DNA of 64,000 nt from Candidatus Bathyarchaeota archaeon (GTDB lineage: Archaea; Thermoproteota; Bathyarchaeia; TCS64). The stretch spans positions 1-64,000 of the forward strand of contig JBDRQD010000021.1 of assembly GCA_043826455.1 (NCBI GenBank), in the 5' to 3' direction. Shown piece by piece: positions 54,841 through 64,000 of the stretch; position 1 is the first letter of the stretch; each line of letters opens with the position of its first letter. The translations under genes and the position numbers were made by a program. The notes under the pieces were generated by a model. The model did not search any database. It was not told the origin of the DNA and saw nothing but the letters and a program-made list of their open reading frames with translations.

Positions 54841-55581
54841 GTGTGGAAGCCAGTGTACGCCATACAGGCTAGGGAGCTCACCAAGTACTTCGGGAGGACG
54901 GAGGCCCTCCGAGGCGCCAGCTTCACCGTGGACGAGAACGAGATATACGGCCTCATAGGGCCCAACGGGGCGGGGAAGACGACGGCTCTCAGGATTTTCA
55001 GCACTCTCATCAGCGCATCGTCGGGCTCCGCCCAGGTCTTCGGATTAGACGTGGCGAGGCAGCCGGAGAAGGTGCGGGAGATTCTCAGCTACCTGCCCGA
55101 GGAGGCCGGGGCGTACCAGTATTTGAGCGGCCTGGAGTTCCTGGAGTTCATGGCCGGCTTCTACTCCAGCAACAAGACAGATATGCAGAGGATCGTGGAA
55201 GAGGGTAAGAGGATCAGCGGCCTGGGTGACCGCCTCCAGGACAGGGTGAACGGTTACAGCAAGGGGATGAAGAGGAGGCTCCTCATCGCTAGGGCGTTGA
55301 TGATGAAGCCCAGGCTGGCCATCCTAGACGAGCCGACGAGTGGCCTGGACGTGACCCAGAGCATCCATGTCCGAAACATGATCCGGGAGTACGCGGATAG
55401 AGCGGGGGTGACCGTGCTGCTGTCCAGCCACAACATGCTGGAGGTGGAGTACCTGTGCAGCAAGGTGGCCCTCATCAGCAACGGCGTGGTCATGGTCGAA
55501 GGGTCTCCTGATGAGCTCCGGAACAGGTACGGGGTTAAGAACTTGGAGGAGGTCTTTATGGAGGTGACTCGCAGTGCGTAA
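54841..55581 (+). CDS. ABC-2 type exporter ATP-binding protein
   Basis: GPNGAGKTT, YSKGM, ILDEPTSGLD, SSH. Confidence 0.94.
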   Translation: MWKPVYAIQARELTKYFGRTEALRGASFTVDENEIYGLIGPNGAGKTTALRIFSTLISASSGSAQVFGLDVARQPEKVREILSYLPEEAGAYQYLSGLEFLEFMAGFYSSNKTDMQRIVEEGKRISGLGDRLQDRVNGYSKGMKRRLLIARALMMKPRLAILDEPTSGLDVTQSIHVRNMIREYADRAGVTVLLSSHNMLEVEYLCSKVALISNGVVMVEGSPDELRNRYGVKNLEEVFMEVTRSA

Positions 55582-56884
55582 CCTGATCGCCATAATCGTC
55601 AAGGAGGTGAAGGAGCTGGTGAGGGACCCCAAGATACTGATAGGTGTGATCCTGATGCCTATCATCATCTTCCCCATCATGGGGTCGGCCATTCAGATCA
55701 GCCAGGAGTCCGTGGAGAGGGCCATCATGGGGGCAAGCTTCGCCGTCTATACAGACGACGAGGGCTTCGTCACAGACGCCTTGCTCAGCTACCTCTATAA
55801 CAACAACACGGTGGTGCCCATTGATGCTGGCAGCCTGGAGGAGGCGCTCATCAGCTTCAAGGAGACGGACAGCTCGGCCATGATCTACATCCCCAGCGGC
55901 TACAACGATAACGTAACCCTGGGCCAGAAGGGGGTGCTGAGGGTTTATGCTAACCTCAGGAAGCTGAACATGGCTGAGACCCAGAGCACCAACGTGGTGA
56001 GCAGCCTCATCACCGTCTACAACTACTACTTCAGCATCAGCAAGATCAGGAACCTGCTGGCCCAGACGGGCAGCATGGGGACCCCGGAGGCAGTGAGGAG
56101 CCCCATAGAGATTCGTTACGCGTCCATACTGAAGGGGAACGTGCTGGACATACCGCCCAACGCCATCTTCAGCCTGGTCATGGGGCAGAGCATCATGCTG
56201 CCCATCATGGTGATGATGATGGTCATATTCGCCATCCAGATGGCCGCCACCAGCATCGCCCTGGAGAAGGAGCAGAAGACCCTGGAGACGCTTATGACGC
56301 TGCCGGTGAGCAGGCTCACCATCCTGGCCGGGAAGCTGAGCGGGAGCATAGTGATAGCCTTAGCCGGGGCTGTGAGCTACCTCATAGGCTTCGGGTTCTA
56401 CATGAACGCGGCGTTCAGCTTCGTCCCGGAGGCCACCACCATGAACATCAGCGACGTGGACATTAGTATCACGCCCTTCGGCATGGTGCTGGTGGGGGTG
56501 GTCATCTTCGTGACCCTGGTCTCGGCTCTGGCCATGGCCCTGAGCGTGGCGGTGTTCGCCGACAACGTGAGGAGCGCCCAGAGCTTCACGGGGGTGCTCA
56601 TCACGCCCATCATGATCCCGGCCGTCGTGCTCATGTTCAGCGACATTGAGATGCTGCCCCAGAGCGTCCAGTGGATTATGCTTGTGATTCCTTACACCCA
56701 CAGCATCATTGCGACGAAGGCGGCGTTCCTGGCCGACTACGTGGTGGTGGTGCGCAGCATCCTGTTCATCAGCGTCTGGACGCTGGCTGTGCTCTACGTG
56801 GCGGCCAAGATTTTCAGTACGGAGCGCATAATTACGGCCAGGTTCACCCTGGGAGACTTCGGGAGACGGTTCAAACGTAAGTGA
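55574..56884 (+). CDS. ABC-2 type exporter permease (NatB-like)
   Basis: KE.KEL.RD, SIA.EKE.KTLETL.TLP, GK, IPYTH. Confidence 0.9.
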   Translation: MRNLIAIIVKEVKELVRDPKILIGVILMPIIIFPIMGSAIQISQESVERAIMGASFAVYTDDEGFVTDALLSYLYNNNTVVPIDAGSLEEALISFKETDSSAMIYIPSGYNDNVTLGQKGVLRVYANLRKLNMAETQSTNVVSSLITVYNYYFSISKIRNLLAQTGSMGTPEAVRSPIEIRYASILKGNVLDIPPNAIFSLVMGQSIMLPIMVMMMVIFAIQMAATSIALEKEQKTLETLMTLPVSRLTILAGKLSGSIVIALAGAVSYLIGFGFYMNAAFSFVPEATTMNISDVDISITPFGMVLVGVVIFVTLVSALAMALSVAVFADNVRSAQSFTGVLITPIMIPAVVLMFSDIEMLPQSVQWIMLVIPYTHSIIATKAAFLADYVVVVRSILFISVWTLAVLYVAAKIFSTERIITARFTLGDFGRRFKRK

Positions 56885-56895
56885 CTTTTCCTCTC

Positions 56896-58011
56896 TTATT
56901 CTAGCTCTCTTATCTCGATGCTTGTCATGGACGTGATGGCCTCGAAGAAGGGCTCATCCTCCTCGGTGACGAGGGTGACCGAGGTCCCCTTCTCCTCCAT
57001 GCGGCCCGTGCGGCCCACCCTGTGGAAGTAGACCTCCGGGTCCTGGGGGACCTCGTAGTTGAAGATGTGGCTCACGCCCTGGATGTCCAGGCCCCTACCG
57101 GCCACGTCGGTGGCCACTATGTACTTGAGGGTCCTGAGCTTGAAGGCCTCCAGGACCTGCCTTCTCTTGGACTGGGAGTGTTTTCCGTGGATGACCTCCA
57201 TGGGGACCCCTGCCTCGGTCAGTTTCTGGGCCAGCTCGTCCGCGGACTCCCGGGTGTTGCAGAAGATGACTGCCTGGTCTATGTCTCTGCCGCGGATTAA
57301 CTCCATGAGCCTCTGGAGCTTCTCATCCGGCTCCACCCTGACGTAGTACTGGTCCACCAGGGGCTGGGCCACCTCATCCCGAGACAGGAGCACCTCCTGG
57401 GGGCTCACCATGTAGCGCCGGGCGTACCCTATTACATCGTCGCTAAGGGTGGCGGACCACATACTGGTCTGGCGGACGAAGGGGGTCCTAGAAAGGATGA
57501 ACCCCACGTCGTCGACGAAGCCCATCTCCAGCATCTTGTCGGCCTCGTCCACCACGGCAACCTTCACGTGGCGGAGTTCGACGACCCGCCTCTTGATGAG
57601 GTGTATAAGCCGGCCGGGGGTGCCCACCAGCACATGGGCGCCCTCCTCCAGCCGGGTGATCTGTTTGATGATGTTCTCGCCGCCGTAGACTACCTGGACC
57701 TTGACGCCGGTGTACCGGGCGAACCGTCGGATCATCAATGCGACCTGCTGGGCCAGCTCCCTGGTGGGGGCTATGACCAAGCCCTGTATATGCTCCTCTG
57801 ATGCGTCCATCTTCATCACGAGGGGTACGCCGAAAGCCGCCGTCTTGCCGGTGCCCGTCTGGGCCTGCCCTATCACGTCCATCCCGTCCAGGAGGAGGGG
57901 CATGGCCTTGGCCTGTATGGGGGTGAGCTCCTTGAACCTGAGCTTCCTGAGCCCCTTCAGCACCTCCTGGCTCAGGGGAAGGTCCTTAAAACTTGTCTTG
58001 TCTGCGATCAT
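56896..58011 (-). CDS. DEAD-box RNA helicase (core only)
   Basis: Q motif TPIQ, AQTGTGKT, PTRELA, TPGR, DEAD, SAT, RGLD, HRVGRTGR; start ATG 58011. Confidence 0.95.
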   Translation of the reverse strand: MIADKTSFKDLPLSQEVLKGLRKLRFKELTPIQAKAMPLLLDGMDVIGQAQTGTGKTAAFGVPLVMKMDASEEHIQGLVIAPTRELAQQVALMIRRFARYTGVKVQVVYGGENIIKQITRLEEGAHVLVGTPGRLIHLIKRRVVELRHVKVAVVDEADKMLEMGFVDDVGFILSRTPFVRQTSMWSATLSDDVIGYARRYMVSPQEVLLSRDEVAQPLVDQYYVRVEPDEKLQRLMELIRGRDIDQAVIFCNTRESADELAQKLTEAGVPMEVIHGKHSQSKRRQVLEAFKLRTLKYIVATDVAGRGLDIQGVSHIFNYEVPQDPEVYFHRVGRTGRMEEKGTSVTLVTEEDEPFFEAITSMTSIEIRELE

Positions 58012-58111
58012 ACAGGCCCTGTACCGATTTACATAAGATCGACTGATAAAGAGTCTGGTAAAGTGTGTCAACGGTGAAAAATGCTGCGTCGAAGGTTAAA
58101 GACGGGGTGTA

Positions 58112-58285
58112 TTAGCGGCGGCGGCGTCTATTGTATTCGTCTCTCGGCTTGTAGACGATCCGGGTCATGTAGTTTTGTTTGTTGCGCCTCAGGGGACTGG
58201 GGCTCTTCGAGATGTTGGTGGTCTCGATCTTCGGGGTCTGGGCTCTCACCTTCCCAGCCTTTGTCAGGGAGCCGTGTGTTGGCAT
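58112..58285 (-). CDS. rps30e: 30S ribosomal protein S30e (eS30)
   Basis: Own translation [70 protein letters not shown] signature; not in ORF track. Confidence 0.93.
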
Positions 58286-58503
58286 TAAGCCTCAGCCGCC
58301 TGTTCCTGTGTGACTATGGTGATCTCGGTGGCTTCCTTACCCTTAGGGGTCTCGATGACCTTGAACTCTACCTCTGTGTTCACTTCCGGTATGGATGTGA
58401 CCGGGTAGTTGGATGAGTGGAAGAAGATGTCGTCTTTACTATCCTCAATCTCTATGAACCCGTATCCTTTATACGAAAAATACTTCGCTATTTTTCCTTT
58501 CAT
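58285..58503 (-). CDS. Cold-shock domain protein
   Basis: MKGKI.K.F..KGYGFI (RNP1), DIFFH (RNP2), VEF......KG..A; start ATG 58503. Confidence 0.92.
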
Positions 58504-58697
58504 ATAAAAACACTTGCACATATACGGGGGACACAGGTTATATGTCTTATGTTTTCACTGGAAAAGTCTAAAAATTTTAAAAATATTTATTTTACCGCCA
58601 AAAATATTCTTTCGGCGTGCTTAATGAAGGATATTTTTTCGATGAGAAAAGTATTTTGCCTTAATCGAGTCTCACATGAAGGCGCCACGGAGGGGCG

Positions 58698-59012
58698 CTA
58701 GGTGAATAGCCGCTTCTCCAGGCCCCGCTTCTCCTTGAACAGCTCGTCCAGGCGGGACGTGTACTCTCTAAGCTTCACCCTGTAGGCGTCCTTGACCTTC
58801 TCCTGGTCTTCGCTGTGCTTCCTGACGACGATGGTTTTAGTCATGTCCGTGGGTGACCTGACCCTGATGTTGCGGCTCCCGGTTCTGGATGAGTCCAGGA
58901 TGTCCAGGTTTCTCTTTATGCGTCTGTACTCGGTGTCAGTGTTGATGTCCTTCAGCTCTTCCTCTATCTGCATTATCCTGTTTAGTATGGTTCTTCGCGT
59001 GGGGCTCATCAA
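58698..59012 (-). CDS. Hypothetical coiled-coil protein
   Basis: Charged helical ORF with typical codon usage. Confidence 0.7.
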   Translation of the reverse strand: MMSPTRRTILNRIMQIEEELKDINTDTEYRRIKRNLDILDSSRTGSRNIRVRSPTDMTKTIVVRKHSEDQEKVKDAYRVKLREYTSRLDELFKEKRGLEKRLFT

Positions 59013-59126
59013 TTATTAATGGTGTTTGAACCTAATATACCTCCCTATTGTGTGTCAGCTTTAGACTAGCGCTTTTGATGTTTTTTATACAATAAAAGGG
59101 GAGGGGTTTGTTTTCATCTGGTTTTT

Positions 59127-59390
59127 TTATGGTGCTATGACGAAGTGGGTGCGGGTGTCCGTGATGAACCCCAGGGCCTCTGAAAGGTCGTTCTGCATCA
59201 TGGCGTTCTCGTAGTCCTTCACGTCTCCCTTCATGAGGTAGACTATGCCCTCCGTTGTGCCGAAGGGGTGGCCCCAGAACACCAGCTCCATCTTGTATTT
59301 TTTCAGTATCTTGCCCACTTTCTCGAACTTCTTGGGCAGGTCACCGGGCTGGACCAGCTTCGCGTAAGATATGTAGTACTTAAACTCCAT
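59127..59390 (-). CDS. Small alpha/beta protein, paralog 1 (possibly GYD/ferredoxin-like fold)
   Basis: AAGGAG RBS; shares KK....L...G.PFG..E pattern with 61450..61743. Confidence 0.8.
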   Translation of the reverse strand: MEFKYYISYAKLVQPGDLPKKFEKVGKILKKYKMELVFWGHPFGTTEGIVYLMKGDVKDYENAMMQNDLSEALGFITDTRTHFVIAP

Positions 59391-59405
59391 TTTGGTCTCC
59401 TTCTC

Positions 59406-59437
59406 GGTTCCACTGAGCGTTTGCTGAAAGTAGAACC
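59406..59437 (-). promoter_or_regulatory. Putative 5'-UTR RNA hairpin, copy 1
   Basis: GGUUCUACU-UUC-AGC-AAAC-GCU-C-AGUGGAACC directly 5' of the SD. Confidence 0.65.
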
Positions 59438-59558
59438 TGTCGAATATTGCCCAAAAATACTATTAATATTTTTTGCCAAAAACCGGTATTTTCACAAAAT
59501 TTGCGTTGCATCTAGTTTACAATGTACAGCGGCCTCTCACCGTTGTGGAATCTCTTCA

Positions 59559-60362
59559 TTAAGTTGGGGTCCACTCGTAGCCTACCATCTTGCAGGAGTC
59601 CTGGAACCCCAGCCTCCTGTACACGCTGTAACCCATCCTTGTTGAGTGCAGTATCCCGAAACGGTAGCCCTCCTTCTCAGCCTCTTTGAAAGGGTAGACG
59701 GTCATGTAGGAGCCCACACCCTTCCCCCGGGCCTCAGGGAGCGTGGCGACCATGTATAGCCCCGCGACGCCGTCCGAGAGGAGGATTGTGGAGGTGGCCA
59801 CTGGCTCGCCGTCCATGTGCCCGATGTAGTGGCGGAGGCTGTCGTCCACCCCCATTTTTATCATCATCCTTGTCCAGTCCCCGGCTATGCTGTCGGGTAG
59901 AGGGTATCCCCTGATCATTATGTCGCAGTATAGCTCAAGCCGGTCACGCCCCTCAACCCTCTCTACATCAAGGCCCTCTGGGATACCAGTCAATTTTATC
60001 TGGCTTAGCTCGGCAGCCATACCAGGGGTATCGTCACGTTTCATCCCGGCGTTTTCCAGGCGGGCAACAAGGTCGTGTGGAGTGTCCTTTGGTGAGGTCA
60101 TCCACGTGAACCCTTTTCCTCGTGAGGAGTAGAGGGAGATCATCTCCCGGATTCTCCGGTCAGCTTTTTCGGGTGTCAGGCGGGTCCGTATGACCCTGTT
60201 GAACATGGAGATGTCGAAGTCGGTGATCGTGTAGGTCAAGTCACGTGTCTGGGTTAGCTCCCAGTTGGAGGTTGTAACCATTCTTTTAATTAGACTGCGG
60301 AAGTTTTCACGTACGGCATCCGCAAGTTGTTCCTCTGAGGGGTTTCGTAGAATCTTGGACAT
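59559..60362 (-). CDS. GNAT family N-acetyltransferase
   Basis: VATLPEARGKGVG, LHST.MG..VY.RLGF. Confidence 0.92.
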   Translation of the reverse strand: MSKILRNPSEEQLADAVRENFRSLIKRMVTTSNWELTQTRDLTYTITDFDISMFNRVIRTRLTPEKADRRIREMISLYSSRGKGFTWMTSPKDTPHDLVARLENAGMKRDDTPGMAAELSQIKLTGIPEGLDVERVEGRDRLELYCDIMIRGYPLPDSIAGDWTRMMIKMGVDDSLRHYIGHMDGEPVATSTILLSDGVAGLYMVATLPEARGKGVGSYMTVYPFKEAEKEGYRFGILHSTRMGYSVYRRLGFQDSCKMVGYEWTPT

Positions 60363-60433
60363 GGTACATTCACCTTAAAGTTGAGTAACAGGTACGTCTC
60401 CCAGCCTCGTACCCTCTACCACCCGTCCTGATC

Positions 60434-61237
60434 TCAGCCCAGACACTTCCGTCTTTCCCTGGTTCGTTCAACTTCCTCCAGGAAGCTGAGCACATGGGGT
60501 AGAACCAGGTCGACTCTATCGAAAGCGTCACCGTGGTCTAACCCGGGTAAGGATACAAGTCTGGCGTTGGGCATTATCTCTGCGCACTTCTTCGCCCCAG
60601 GGTAGTAGTAGTCCTTGTCTCCGCAGTAGAGCAATGTGGGCGTAGTGACCTTGGGGAGAAACTCCTCGTACCCTAGGCGCTCGTTGAGTTTAATGATGTC
60701 GGTGACGGCAGCTGTGTCCAGCTCCATGAAATGTCTTCGCTCCTGCTCTGAAAGGCCCCCTCCAATCGTCTCCTCCATCTCCTTGATGATGGCCTCATTG
60801 CCCTTGCTGAAGAACGTGATCATCTCTTTCCGCCTATTCTTACTGGCCTCGGTGTCCCACTCGTCGGCACCCATTCCCCCGATTATCAGGGCGCTGAACC
60901 TGTCTGGGGCGTACTTCCCAGTGGCTAGACCCACCCTGCCTCCCAGCGAGAAGCCCCAGAAGTGGGCCTTCTCGTAGCCGAGGTGGTCGAGCACGGCCAC
61001 CGCGTCACCCACCATCTTCTTCATGGAGTAATCTTCCGGCTTGTGCGGCTTGCTGCTCTTTCCGTGGCCTCTGGCGTTCAGGAGTATGAGTTCATGTTTC
61101 TCTTTCAGTGGCTCAATGTAGCCGGCTGCCCTCCAGCTTCCAGGATACCCGGATAAACCGTGGTGAATCATGAGGGGATATCCCTCCCCCTCTACGCTGT
61201 AGTATATCTTAACGTCCTCATTCCGTGCGAACGGCAT
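60434..61237 (-). CDS. Alpha/beta hydrolase
   Basis: HHG, RGHG.S, GFSLGG nucleophile elbow, G.KD, GLDH. Confidence 0.92.
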   Translation of the reverse strand: MPFARNEDVKIYYSVEGEGYPLMIHHGLSGYPGSWRAAGYIEPLKEKHELILLNARGHGKSSKPHKPEDYSMKKMVGDAVAVLDHLGYEKAHFWGFSLGGRVGLATGKYAPDRFSALIIGGMGADEWDTEASKNRRKEMITFFSKGNEAIIKEMEETIGGGLSEQERRHFMELDTAAVTDIIKLNERLGYEEFLPKVTTPTLLYCGDKDYYYPGAKKCAEIMPNARLVSLPGLDHGDAFDRVDLVLPHVLSFLEEVERTRERRKCLG

Positions 61238-61403
61238 CTACAAACTCATCTCCTAAATCTTTTTAAGCCCTATTTCTAGTTATTTTATATTAATATTAAT
61301 ATTTACTGAGTGAAAAAATATAATTTCAGTGCAATACAATAATTTTAACTAAATCCGATGCCTGAAGATAAACCCTTAAATCGGCAACAAACCAACTTCC
61401 ATT

Positions 61404-61436
61404 TAGGTTCTGCTCACATAAAATGGTCAGAGCCTA
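61404..61436 (+). promoter_or_regulatory. Putative 5'-UTR RNA hairpin, copy 2
   Basis: UAGGUUCUG-CUCA-CAU-AAA-AUG-GU-CAGAGCCUA directly 5' of the SD. Confidence 0.65.
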
Positions 61437-61449
61437 GAAGGTGCATCAA

Positions 61450-61743
61450 GTGACCAAAGCACTGTACATATGCTTCGTGAAGTGGTCCATAGACGCCTAC
61501 AAGAAGTGGGGCGCCGACCCCGAGTACTTCAACAAGAACTGGATGCCCAAACACGACGAACTCATGAAGAAGCACAGCCTCAAGCTAGCCTACAACGGCA
61601 CACCCTTCGGGCTACCCGAGGACGCCTGCATGGTGTACGAGGGCGGCTCCGACGTGGACAAGTACAAGCAGTTCAGGCAAGCCGTCGCAGCCATAGCCCC
61701 GGGCATACTGGACTCAGCCAACACGATCATCGTCTCGCTGTGA
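61450..61743 (+). CDS. Small alpha/beta protein, paralog 2 (possibly GYD/ferredoxin-like fold)
   Basis: AAGGTG RBS, GTG start 61450; KKHSLKL..NGTPFGLPE. Confidence 0.8.
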   Translation: MTKALYICFVKWSIDAYKKWGADPEYFNKNWMPKHDELMKKHSLKLAYNGTPFGLPEDACMVYEGGSDVDKYKQFRQAVAAIAPGILDSANTIIVSL

Positions 61744-61793
61744 AACGCGGGACACACCCACCCCTTTTTTATCACTCAACCCAACAAGGTACC

Positions 61794-62510
61794 ATGCCAA
61801 GGTGTGTCCTCATCATCCAGAATGACCCGCCAGAGACCCTGGGCCTCTACGAGACGTACCTCCGCGAGAAGGCCCAGGTCACCCTCATCCAAGCCTACAA
61901 CATGAAGCCCCAGGAGCAGTTCCCTCCGACAGACGATTTCGACGTCTTCATCATCGGCCCTACACCCATCTCCGCCAACGACGCCCAGAAACATGGGTTC
62001 CTACGTAAAGAGTGGGGCTACCTACAGCAGATCATCGACTCAGGTAAACCGACGCTAGGTGTCTGCTGCGGAGGCCAGATGCTCGCCAGGCTCCAGGGCG
62101 GAGAGGTACACCGCAGCCCCAGCAAGGAGATAGGCGGCTACACCGTAGCGCTCACGGACCACGGCCTCAGGGACCCCCTCTTCCGCGGCTTCCCCGCCAA
62201 CTTCCCCGTATTCCACTGGCACCAGGACATGTTCACGGTCCCCCCCGGAGGACAACTCCTAGCCACAGGCACCCCCTGCACCATCCAGGCCTACGCCAAG
62301 GACAACATCCGAGGCCTCATCTTCCACCTGGAGATCACCCACAGTGACGCCGAGCGCTGGGCAGACGCCTACCCAGAAGAGCCCGCAGCCATAGGTAAAA
62401 CCCGGGAACAAGCCCTGGAAGAGTGCCGAGAAGCCGAGCCGGAGATGAGGCGACTTGCAGAGAGACTCGTAGACAACCTACTAGCCATCCCCCCACTCAA
62501 ACCACGATAA
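61794..62510 (+). CDS. Type 1 glutamine amidotransferase-like protein
   Basis: P.LGVCCGGQ, EIG, FHWHQD.F, FHLE triad; start ATG 61794. Confidence 0.9.
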   Translation: MPRCVLIIQNDPPETLGLYETYLREKAQVTLIQAYNMKPQEQFPPTDDFDVFIIGPTPISANDAQKHGFLRKEWGYLQQIIDSGKPTLGVCCGGQMLARLQGGEVHRSPSKEIGGYTVALTDHGLRDPLFRGFPANFPVFHWHQDMFTVPPGGQLLATGTPCTIQAYAKDNIRGLIFHLEITHSDAERWADAYPEEPAAIGKTREQALEECREAEPEMRRLAERLVDNLLAIPPLKPR

Positions 62511-62600
62511 AAATCACTAAACGCGCAGCCATTGTAATCGACCACCTAACACACCACTGTGAGACACTGGCTAAAGGAGAAGACAGGGTCACCTCAACCA

Positions 62601-62720
62601 GGATTTAGCTAAATGCAACTCGAAAAAATATCACATTCTTCCACACAGCTGTCATCAACCCCCCTAAAATCGACAATTCCCAGCCACCAGGTACAAACCC
62701 TGGAACCCCAAGGAACAACC
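62601..62720. repeat. Dispersed non-coding repeat, copy B
   Basis: Same blocks and orientation as 35243..35390. Confidence 0.8.
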
Positions 62721-62736
62721 CCCATATTTCACGTAA

Positions 62737-62958
62737 CTATAAGCCACCTGTAACGAGGCCAGCCTGAGTCCACTCCTCGCACTCCCGCAACATGATCACA
62801 GACTCCACATACCCCAGCCGCTCACAGTAGCAGAACTCCCCCAGGTCAAACCCCACCCGCTCCAAGGCGTTCACGATCTCCTTGTTCTCCTGACCCAGCC
62901 CCAGACGCACCTCCCCCTCAATTACCCTGGCGTGAGCACAGCCCCCACAGGTAACCAT
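62737..62958 (-). CDS. 73-aa Cys-rich hypothetical protein
   Basis: MVTCGGCAH...FCYCERL...RECEEW; trimmed to ATG 62958 so it does not overlap the HAD gene. Confidence 0.55.
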   Translation of the reverse strand: MVTCGGCAHARVIEGEVRLGLGQENKEIVNALERVGFDLGEFCYCERLGYVESVIMLRECEEWTQAGLVTGGL

Positions 62959-63046
62959 CAACAAAACCAACGCCCCCCACCATATCAGCGTTAGGGCAAA
63001 CAATAAAAACAGAGCCACCCCAGATACCCAGAAAGAGGCACCCCGC

Positions 63047-63730
63047 ATGACCATCAAAGGAATAGTCTTCGACCTCGACAGCACCCTCGTAGACAGCCAC
63101 GTAGACTTCGCCAAGATGAAGCAGAAGATCATCCACTACCTGGAGGAGAACGGCCACCCGAAGGCCGCCCTCAGCCCCACGACCCAGACCACCGTCCAGA
63201 TCATGGAGGAAGCAGAGAAAAACTGGGCCAAACAAGGAAAAACAGAGCAACAGAAACAGCGCATGAGAGACAAGACAACAGAGTACATGGACCAAGGCGA
63301 ACTGGAGGCCATCGAGACCCTAACAGAGATACCCGGCGCAAAACAAGCCGCAGAGCAGCTCAAAGCCCAAGGCTACCAGCTCGCCATCCTCACCAGAAGC
63401 CACAACCAGTACGCAGTAAAAGCCCTGGAGAAGACAGGCATGACTCACCTATTCAACCCCGTCCTCGGCCGAGGAGAGACACCCCAACCCAAACCCTACA
63501 AGGAAGCCCTGGAGCACACCGTTAAAATCATGGGCCTCAGCATCGACGAGGTCATCATGATCGGAGACCACCAGATAGACCGCGACAGCGCCACCAACAG
63601 CGGCTGCCCCTTCATAGGAGTCGCCACAGGCCACAGGGGCCTCAAGAGCTGGGCCGACGAGAAGCCCCCTGCCGTTCTCCTAGGAAGCGTTTCCGAGCTA
63701 CCAGCCTACATCCAGAAGAACCGCACGTAA
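63047..63730 (+). CDS. HAD-superfamily phosphatase
   Basis: FDLDSTLVD, ILTR, PKP, MIGD. Confidence 0.9.
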   Translation: MTIKGIVFDLDSTLVDSHVDFAKMKQKIIHYLEENGHPKAALSPTTQTTVQIMEEAEKNWAKQGKTEQQKQRMRDKTTEYMDQGELEAIETLTEIPGAKQAAEQLKAQGYQLAILTRSHNQYAVKALEKTGMTHLFNPVLGRGETPQPKPYKEALEHTVKIMGLSIDEVIMIGDHQIDRDSATNSGCPFIGVATGHRGLKSWADEKPPAVLLGSVSELPAYIQKNRT

Positions 63731-63805
63731 AAAGAAAGCCTTTTTATCCCAACCAAGACCCCTATACAACAAATCCCGGACAAAACCACGCCCGGAGATG
63801 TCTAC

Positions 63806-64000
63806 TTGAGCCCGATAAAAGATGAGTACAAGAAGAAACTCGACCAAGCCATGTCCATACTCAACATGATCGCCGACGACAACACCACCCCCCGCAACAT
63901 CAGGCGCACCGCCAAGCAGGCCGCCGACATGCTACTAGACGAGAGCATCAGCGTCGCGGCCAGAGCAGCCAACGCCATAGCCATCCTGGAGGACATAAGC
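63806..64000 (+). CDS. UPF0147 family protein (partial, 3'-truncated)
   Basis: Own translation MSPIKDEYKKKLDQAMSILNMIADDNTTPRNIRRTAKQAADML...ARAANAIAILEDIS; D...PRNIRR signature. Confidence 0.88.
   Translation, partial: MSPIKDEYKKKLDQAMSILNMIADDNTTPRNIRRTAKQAADMLLDESISVAARAANAIAILEDIS

Follow-up and report, generated by a model that had tools for sequence, protein, structure and literature searches.

A promoter and leader-hairpin module in front of unrelated small genes of Bathyarchaeia

The window analysed here, a stretch of 64,000 nucleotides (nt) from a Candidatus Bathyarchaeota archaeon, carries two divergently oriented small genes, p1 and p2, whose leaders (L1 and L2) each form a hairpin that we name P1. 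The two leaders are the short, P1-only form of a larger promoter–leader–Shine-Dalgarno (SD) module common to many unrelated small genes; in the full module a second hairpin with a tail, P2, follows P1. This truncation is absent from the original prediction, which read the leaders as a new cis-regulatory RNA supported by only two copies: more than 100 related sites were recovered. The features of the locus, in window coordinates, are as follows.

59091..59106, minus strand: C-rich then T-rich tract, the likely terminator of p1 (from the sequence; an RNA-library contig ends at 59101)
59127..59390, minus strand: gene p1 (from the list of open reading frames, ORFs), 87 amino acids (aa), predicted ferredoxin-like (dimeric alpha+beta barrel-like), of a lineage-expanded family
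59397..59403, minus strand: SD of p1 (GAAGGAG), outside the stem; the 16S 3' end of the genome contains GATCACCTCC
59406..59438, minus strand: P1 hairpin of L1, with a 9-base-pair (bp) basal stem including one U-G, P2 absent (from folds and a match of model R2); begins at the predicted transcription start
59460..59474, minus strand: A-rich run resembling a transcription factor B recognition element (BRE), and TATA-like box of p1 (from the sequence), spaced as in 47 of the 81 TATA-like hits across copies
61370..61382, plus strand: BRE/TATA-like box of p2 (from the sequence), under the same spacing rule
61404..61436, plus strand: P1 hairpin of L2, P2 absent (from folds and an R2 match); the stem is kept, with a compensatory change, in the orthologue leader L143
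61437..61443, plus strand: SD of p2 (GAAGGTG; from the sequence), part of which pairs with coding sequence when a longer stretch is folded
61450..61743, plus strand: gene p2, 97 aa, a distant p1 homologue (from the ORF list and protein comparison)
61757..61770, plus strand: C-rich then T-rich tract, the likely terminator of p2 (from the sequence)

The hairpins of L1 and L2

Both leaders lie where they had been predicted, and folding of the sense strand is borne out for each. L1 reaches −15.3 kcal/mol (z-score −3.0; as good in 0 of 200 dinucleotide shuffles) and L2 −15.1 kcal/mol (z-score −2.6; 2 of 200). On the opposite strand L1 has no such fold (z-score −0.6) and L2 a partial one (z-score −2.3). 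Both leaders have the basal stem with its G-U pair, a TATA-like box whose distance to the first G is about 30 nt, and an SD directly after the stem; each passes from P1 straight into the SD. Shuffled sequence rarely matches these hairpins, yet their strength is ordinary for the genome: over 60 nt, folds as strong occur upstream of 12.5% and 9.7% of the 1,540 genes with an upstream gap.

The original prediction had also given the two hairpins the same internal loop, and an apical stem fully swapped between them (AGC/GCU against CAU/AUG); we could confirm neither. The best fold of L2 pairs UCA with UGG, at −13.2 against −11.8 for the CAU/AUG fold; the leader of the p2 orthologue (L143) has CAC…AUU at the CAU/AUG places, within one continuous stem. 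The three apical pairs hold in 7/16, 13/15 and 7/15 rows of 16 aligned leaders. Judged from such alignments, the basal stem is the only part of P1 that covaries.

Model R2 ranks L1 first and L2 second in the window, both leaders being members of its training set, and a genome-wide R2 search missed L2. As had been anticipated, no known Rfam family matches at the leaders: searches with E up to 5 on window positions 55000-64000, and up to 3 on 16 loci, gave chance-level matches, none at the gathering score. A reading as a selenocysteine insertion sequence was dropped; the GAA bulge lies on the opposite strand, and on the wrong side for the archaeal consensus. A DNA operator with fixed spacing was rejected, the hairpin spanning 21-42 nt across 65 copies.

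Anatomy, conservation and range of the module

In the same genome, a hairpin matching that of L1 at 26 of 33 nt stands before an unrelated SnoaL/DUF4440 gene on contig C80; another copy, before a DUF3303 gene on contig C67, is followed by P2. From 5' to 3', the module comprises an A-rich BRE-like run, a TATA-like box, about 24 nt, TCA, P1, 1-3 nt, P2, a purine-rich SD and the start codon. The P1 stem, AGGUUCUACU…AGUGGAACC, begins at the predicted transcription start, and the hairpin as a whole is built of AGGUUCUACU, a variable apex and AGUGGAACCU. P2 of the C67 copy reads GCUCC-GAGGUGG-GGAGC, then an A-rich 8-mer and UACCA.

TATA-like hits lie 29-32 nt before the first G of P1 in 47 of 81 cases. 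With the usual archaeal spacing from TATA box to start, the predicted start falls 1-3 nt before the stem, which puts P1 about 2 nt after it. Archaeal promoter boxes are described at about 19-22 nt from the start in one published account (PMC5378194). Directly upstream of P2, a perfect stem of at least 8 bp is found at 44 of 107 sites, against 11% in shuffles, and in 67 of 74 cases the distance between P2 and the start codon is 44-57 nt. Of 61 model hits, the best 50 were used in the counts for P2 spacing and pseudoknot, for the 3' box and for leader pairs given below. Decayed and half-deleted forms of P2 exist; in two of them (L027, L111) the old P2 loop is found at the place where an SD would be expected.

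Conservation of pairing in P1 was assessed on 65 stems (alignment A6), which had been picked for good pairing from 113 candidates, the other 48 being left out. In this set 86% of cells are paired, against 36-52% in slid controls on the same stems, and there are 29 double changes where 15.7 ± 3.3 are expected, a number reached in 0 of 500 shuffles. When all 113 candidates are anchored by sequence only, pairs 3, 5, 6, 7 and 10 still beat the shuffles, and on the sense strand G-U combinations outnumber A-C by 146 to 49. The signal is weaker in the 16 near-orthologous leaders, where it is equalled in 11-24 of 500 shuffles on four measures and in 83 of 500 on a fifth. The stem of P2 is 98% paired, with 7 double changes against 0.5 expected (0 of 500 shuffles). 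A pseudoknot between loop and tail of P2, whose four pairs are all possible in 62 of 94 copies, is unsupported, since no variant is compensated. P2 is not known to share the anatomy of a tRNA or of a ribozyme, and readings of this kind were dropped.

A loose P1 pattern matches 239 of 2,644 genes and was too permissive for discovery, hence the use of models R1 and R2. Among held-out hits of the P1 model, 13 of 17 lie no more than 55 nt from a sense ORF. Nine loci were dropped before the counts as false or too weak (L178, L189, L195, L300, L302, L303, L304, L306, L308). The genome hairpin scan also brought up a hairpin at C30:57535 (minus strand; genome G000) that we take to resemble an end of the IS200/IS605 type.

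A pattern for P2 gave 35 matches in 23 of the 79 genomes of the Bathyarchaeia order, against 5 for a reversed control; the P2 model gave 92 matches in 39 of the 79, and one further genome among 150 others from the phylum. Across all species genomes, a strict pattern found 53 loci, by title 41 of Bathyarchaeia or Bathyarchaeota, 6 of other archaea and 6 under bacterial titles. The other archaea are Hadarchaeota, Hodarchaeota, Promethearchaeota, Methanomassiliicoccales (on a 274-kb contig), Culexmicrobium and one more, five of these genomes having one or two P2 copies each. We do not accept a bacterial range: two of the six titles lack the leader context, two are duplicates and two (L194, L236) sit on contigs below 10 kb. 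At L236:640-730, on a bacterial-titled contig, an unrelated membrane-protein gene is abruptly joined to a segment made up of the 3' end of the small ORF, P2 and a secreted gene; the junction may reflect recent transfer or a chimeric assembly. Viral contigs gave no P2 match.

The genes behind the leaders belong to at least 19 families, some of them assigned below curated cut-offs: DUF3303, GYD, DUF4440/SnoaL, FG-GAP, DUF3224, C_GCAxxG_C_C, DUF6616, muconolactone isomerase, NIPSNAP, tautomerase, ABM, cupin, polyketide cyclase 2, SCO4226-like, bPH_5, DUF1059, DUF1330, PNPOx-like and TIGR04076. The literature searched holds no earlier description of the element; the supplements of RNA-motif surveys, outside that search, could list the motif.

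Probable exchange of genes behind the leader

Across 88 elements, the median identity of leader pairs in the 75 nt preceding P2 is 52%; 40 pairs reach at least 72%, and in 27 of the 40 the proteins that follow have no detectable similarity. In one such pair, the identity extends to the start codon. At the orthologous locus beside p1, one homologous divergent leader precedes three different genes. In L151 the gene is a member of the p2 family and P2 is intact; in L152 it is SnoaL-like and P2 has decayed; in L153 it is DUF3303-like and P2 is deleted, the labels of L152 and L153 being given by eye. Upstream of p1, each of these loci has a pair of P1-bearing promoters that point away from each other at a distance of about 200 nt; the P1 stems of the pair in L151 share 25 of 33 nt despite distant proteins. 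In L143, about 500 nt separate p1 and p2, and the two genes that intervene in the window are absent.

Cassette genes can also carry a conserved box at their 3' side, AAACCACTCAGATGCTGA, directly after the C-rich/T-rich terminator. The strict pattern of this box has 31 matches in 16 of 401 genomes and no control hits (examples are L111:779; L270:2780 and 4586, minus strand; L344:5504, 6432 and 6894). A box after the terminator is found for 16 of 73 P2 genes against 13 of the 2,672 genes of this genome, and for 13 of the 31 boxes the preceding gene has a P1 or P2 leader. Cassette units form tandem arrays, which differ between two genomes at one site. The genome contains six unclassified tyrosine-recombinase-like genes, away from the arrays.

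The closest known system is the promoter-early stem-loop (PeSL) cassette of the T4-type phages RB49/phi1 (PMC2839356). As described there, a repeated unit of promoter, stem-loop, SD and start codon precedes small, unrelated, non-essential genes in variable regions, as here. Genes are exchanged between PeSL copies, and mini-circles formed by recombination are a PeSL feature; exchange in the present case is read from sequence comparison alone (27 of 40 pairs; L151-L153). The PeSL promoter is of the sigma70 type in a T4-like phage, whereas here BRE/TATA promoters stand on a cellular chromosome; the stem of a PeSL cassette is placed within or ahead of the promoter and ends transcription that comes from upstream, whereas the present stem comes after the predicted start and is transcribed. 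The additional P2 hairpin and tail, and the separate 3' box, are further differences. Integron gene cassettes, described also from archaea (bioRxiv 10.1101/2022.02.06.479319), share the arrays of single accessory genes with a conserved 3' sequence after each; here, in contrast, every unit has its own promoter and terminator, and no integrase was seen by eye beside the arrays.

Proposed function of the leader and competing readings

We favour, with a probability of about 0.5, the reading that the leader is a 5'-terminal stabiliser of mRNA inside a portable expression cassette. P1 is predicted to stand at the very 5' end of the message, capping the transcript; it would likely shield the message from 5'-to-3' decay while the ribosome site stays open. 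The module likely spreads through recombination, by which the gene behind the leader is swapped. P2 would probably be the binding site of a factor, and would also offer the longest stretch of homology for exchange; it often decays or is deleted, P1 being retained.

The classic 5'-terminal stem-loop stabiliser is that of ompA. Stems at the 5' terminus oppose mRNA decay in bacteria, and aCPSF2 drives 5'-to-3' mRNA decay in Sulfolobus, according to two published accounts (PMC3792030 and PMC7509114). The bacterial elements are matched by the stem within about 2 nt of the predicted 5' end, by its variable apex and by an SD outside the stem, as in L1, with the SD of L166 mostly open. Pairing is conserved and the apex free to vary, as expected of a stabiliser. 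The bacterial stabilisers are gene-specific, whereas here a module conserved in sequence, with a presumed stabilising role, is reused across at least 19 protein families in several archaeal lineages. A beta-CASP protein of 421 aa is present in the genome besides aCPSF1.

Two contigs of one RNA library (run X1) match p1 by at least 99%, from 59101 to 59438, the predicted first base. The end at 59438 is a weak hint at a start site, coming from one study and from contigs, which cannot prove a start. Run X1 did not cover the neighbours of p1, including p2, and a second run (X2) gave distant partial matches only. Nothing in X1 matched a 19.5-kb region that surrounds this genome's full element, so the presence of the organism in X1 is not established and we draw no inference on abundance.

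Several points weigh against the stabiliser reading. A plain stabiliser needs structure only, yet the sequence of the stem, and P2, are strongly conserved; this may be explained by common descent of the cassette or by a specific binder. The two genes of the window have neither P2 nor the 3' box, part of the SD is paired when L2, L137, L188 and L235 are folded over a longer stretch, and the aCPSF2 identity of the 421-aa protein is putative only. As to covariation, the 65 rows had been selected for good pairing, pairs 8 and 9 have no excess pairing in the unselected 113 candidates, and kinship among sequences can beat a shuffle control without any structure, which can inflate such tests. Four of the 17 held-out P1 hits lack an ORF behind them, and after two more held-out hits no clear ORF follows. 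Beside ten arrays, inspected by eye without a profile scan, no integrase or transposase was recognisable.

The full P1-P2 leader could instead be a regulatory switch or protein-binding site, riboswitch-like, with a regulon of small ligand-binding proteins and the window copies as constitutive remnants without sensor; we consider this rather unlikely. It would account for the near-invariant unpaired bases of P2, its covarying stem, its fixed 44-57 nt from the start codon and its occurrence in several archaeal lineages; moreover, the loop of P2 is a match to the anti-SD of the 16S rRNA, and for its tail, UACC, there are two possible pairing partners, the loop and an SD of the GGUG type. P2 resembles the small H-type pseudoknot riboswitches preQ1-I, SAM-V and guanidine-III in its 5-bp stem, its A-rich 8-nt linker and its conserved tetramer just before the SD. 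It differs from them in having no Rfam match, no compensated loop-tail pairing and no pathway common to the downstream genes, and in being absent from the window leaders; P2 also decays often, and a switch would leave the retention of P1 unexplained. A different possibility, to which we give still less weight, is that the hairpins act as DNA, either as ends recognised in single-stranded form or as handles for the recombination of a mobile gene cassette, the RNA fold being incidental. This would fit genes that have a 5' module on one side and a 3' box on the other, tandem arrays that vary from genome to genome at one locus, gene replacement behind the same leader and the six tyrosine-recombinase-like genes, and the strand-biased wobble also suits single-stranded DNA. 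Against it, P1 is locked to promoter spacing and P2 to the start codon, and no dedicated enzyme was seen by eye beside the arrays, nor P2 in viral contigs. An attC site has paired R''/R' ends and a hairpin on the bottom strand; the 3' box, tried as one, has the partner motif GTTRRR downstream in 12 of 40 cases, seven candidate hairpin pairs that hold in 18-34 of 40, and no consistent fold in six examples; it has neither a conserved hairpin nor an attC-like partner motif.

What stands of the original prediction is a selected, uncatalogued 5' RNA element, given the covariation, the G-U bias, the fixed TATA distance and the lack of an Rfam match; what does not is its suggestion of an operator bound by the p1 and p2 proteins in autoregulation, which we regard as very improbable. 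The ferredoxin-like fold, a weak structural likeness of p1 to ribosomal protein S6 and the many downstream proteins of the same fold class speak for it. Nevertheless, most members of the p1/p2 family lack the hairpin (33 of 116 pass the loose test, against 239 of 2,644 genes), and 12 of the 33 genomes with P2 at E up to 1e-4 have no family match, six of these 12 being at least 92% complete; this makes autoregulation unlikely. The element stands before SnoaL, cupin, START-like, tautomerase and secreted proteins, the near-identical hairpin of C80 among them, and the best fold matches of p1 are enzyme-like barrels. The clade of a third paralogue (G000 C77:1755-2033), a large one, mostly lacks the canonical hairpin in its leaders, as judged by eye. 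P1 as a promoter-proximal pause or attenuator, like the terminator stem-loops of the PeSL cassettes whose layout it resembles (PMC2839356), seems to us hardly credible: a T-tract follows only 1 of 65 stems, the stem is downstream of the predicted start, and the RNA contig runs from the stem into the gene.

Were the stabiliser reading true, archaea would have in the leader a natural means to protect the 5' end of mRNA, and it could be used directly as an expression part. Control of archaeal mRNA is poorly mapped, with few conserved archaeal leader RNAs in Rfam; the present one is compact, covarying, testable with a reporter and common to at least 19 protein families. We venture, as a speculation, a plug-in gene system without integron in sediment archaea, in which the promoter and P1-P2-SD in front, and terminator and box at the back, form a socket for unrelated accessory genes. 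Exchange would sometimes occur exactly at the start codon, the system would travel between archaeal phyla, and P2 would be a specific RNA signal co-controlling the plugged-in genes. If the bracketing modules drive exchange, they would give a dominant sediment lineage a route to gain and immediately express accessory genes, and the PeSL idea would extend from phages to cellular chromosomes.

p1 and p2 are indeed divergent paralogues, as originally proposed: distant homologues with 32% identity over 41 aa, both recovered by a single profile. Between them lie a GNAT gene and an alpha/beta-hydrolase gene. p1 has no Pfam or NCBIfam match; its structure model (predicted local distance difference test score 96) has NIPSNAP, SnoaB-type and Lrp C-terminal domains among the nearest solved folds, and p1 is predicted to be a ferredoxin-like domain closest to enzyme-like dimeric barrels. 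The family profile is matched by 143 clusters (at 50% identity), and the family occurs in 43 of 401 class-level genomes, every one within a single family of Bathyarchaeia; in the locus scan, for which this profile proved too divergent, a closer alignment took its place. One protein of 1,364 aa (P0113) has 10 stretches matching the profile, and is possibly a repeat protein or a chance match. Just downstream of p1, window positions 56896-58521 hold what we take from the translations to be DEAD-box helicase-like, S30e-like and cold-shock-domain-like genes. The hairpin copy on C80 is preceded by a second DEAD-box-like gene.

Before some P2 copies, a conserved ORF of 70-80 aa stops at the foot of P2, and a secreted protein usually comes next (L138:339-539; L160:1533-1760, minus strand; L171, L181, L183, L269, L278, L283), with a second copy of the small ORF at G000 C15:263579-263833. 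It has no Pfam, NCBIfam or Atlas match; its product is a candidate P2-binding factor. Finally, a dispersed repeat, GTGAGGATAAGATTATG, often with TCAACCA…TTCAC about 40 nt upstream, has 32 matches in this genome and often abuts the 3' box; examples are G000 C24:5072 and 5601, C75:53364-55156, C67:17989 and L345.

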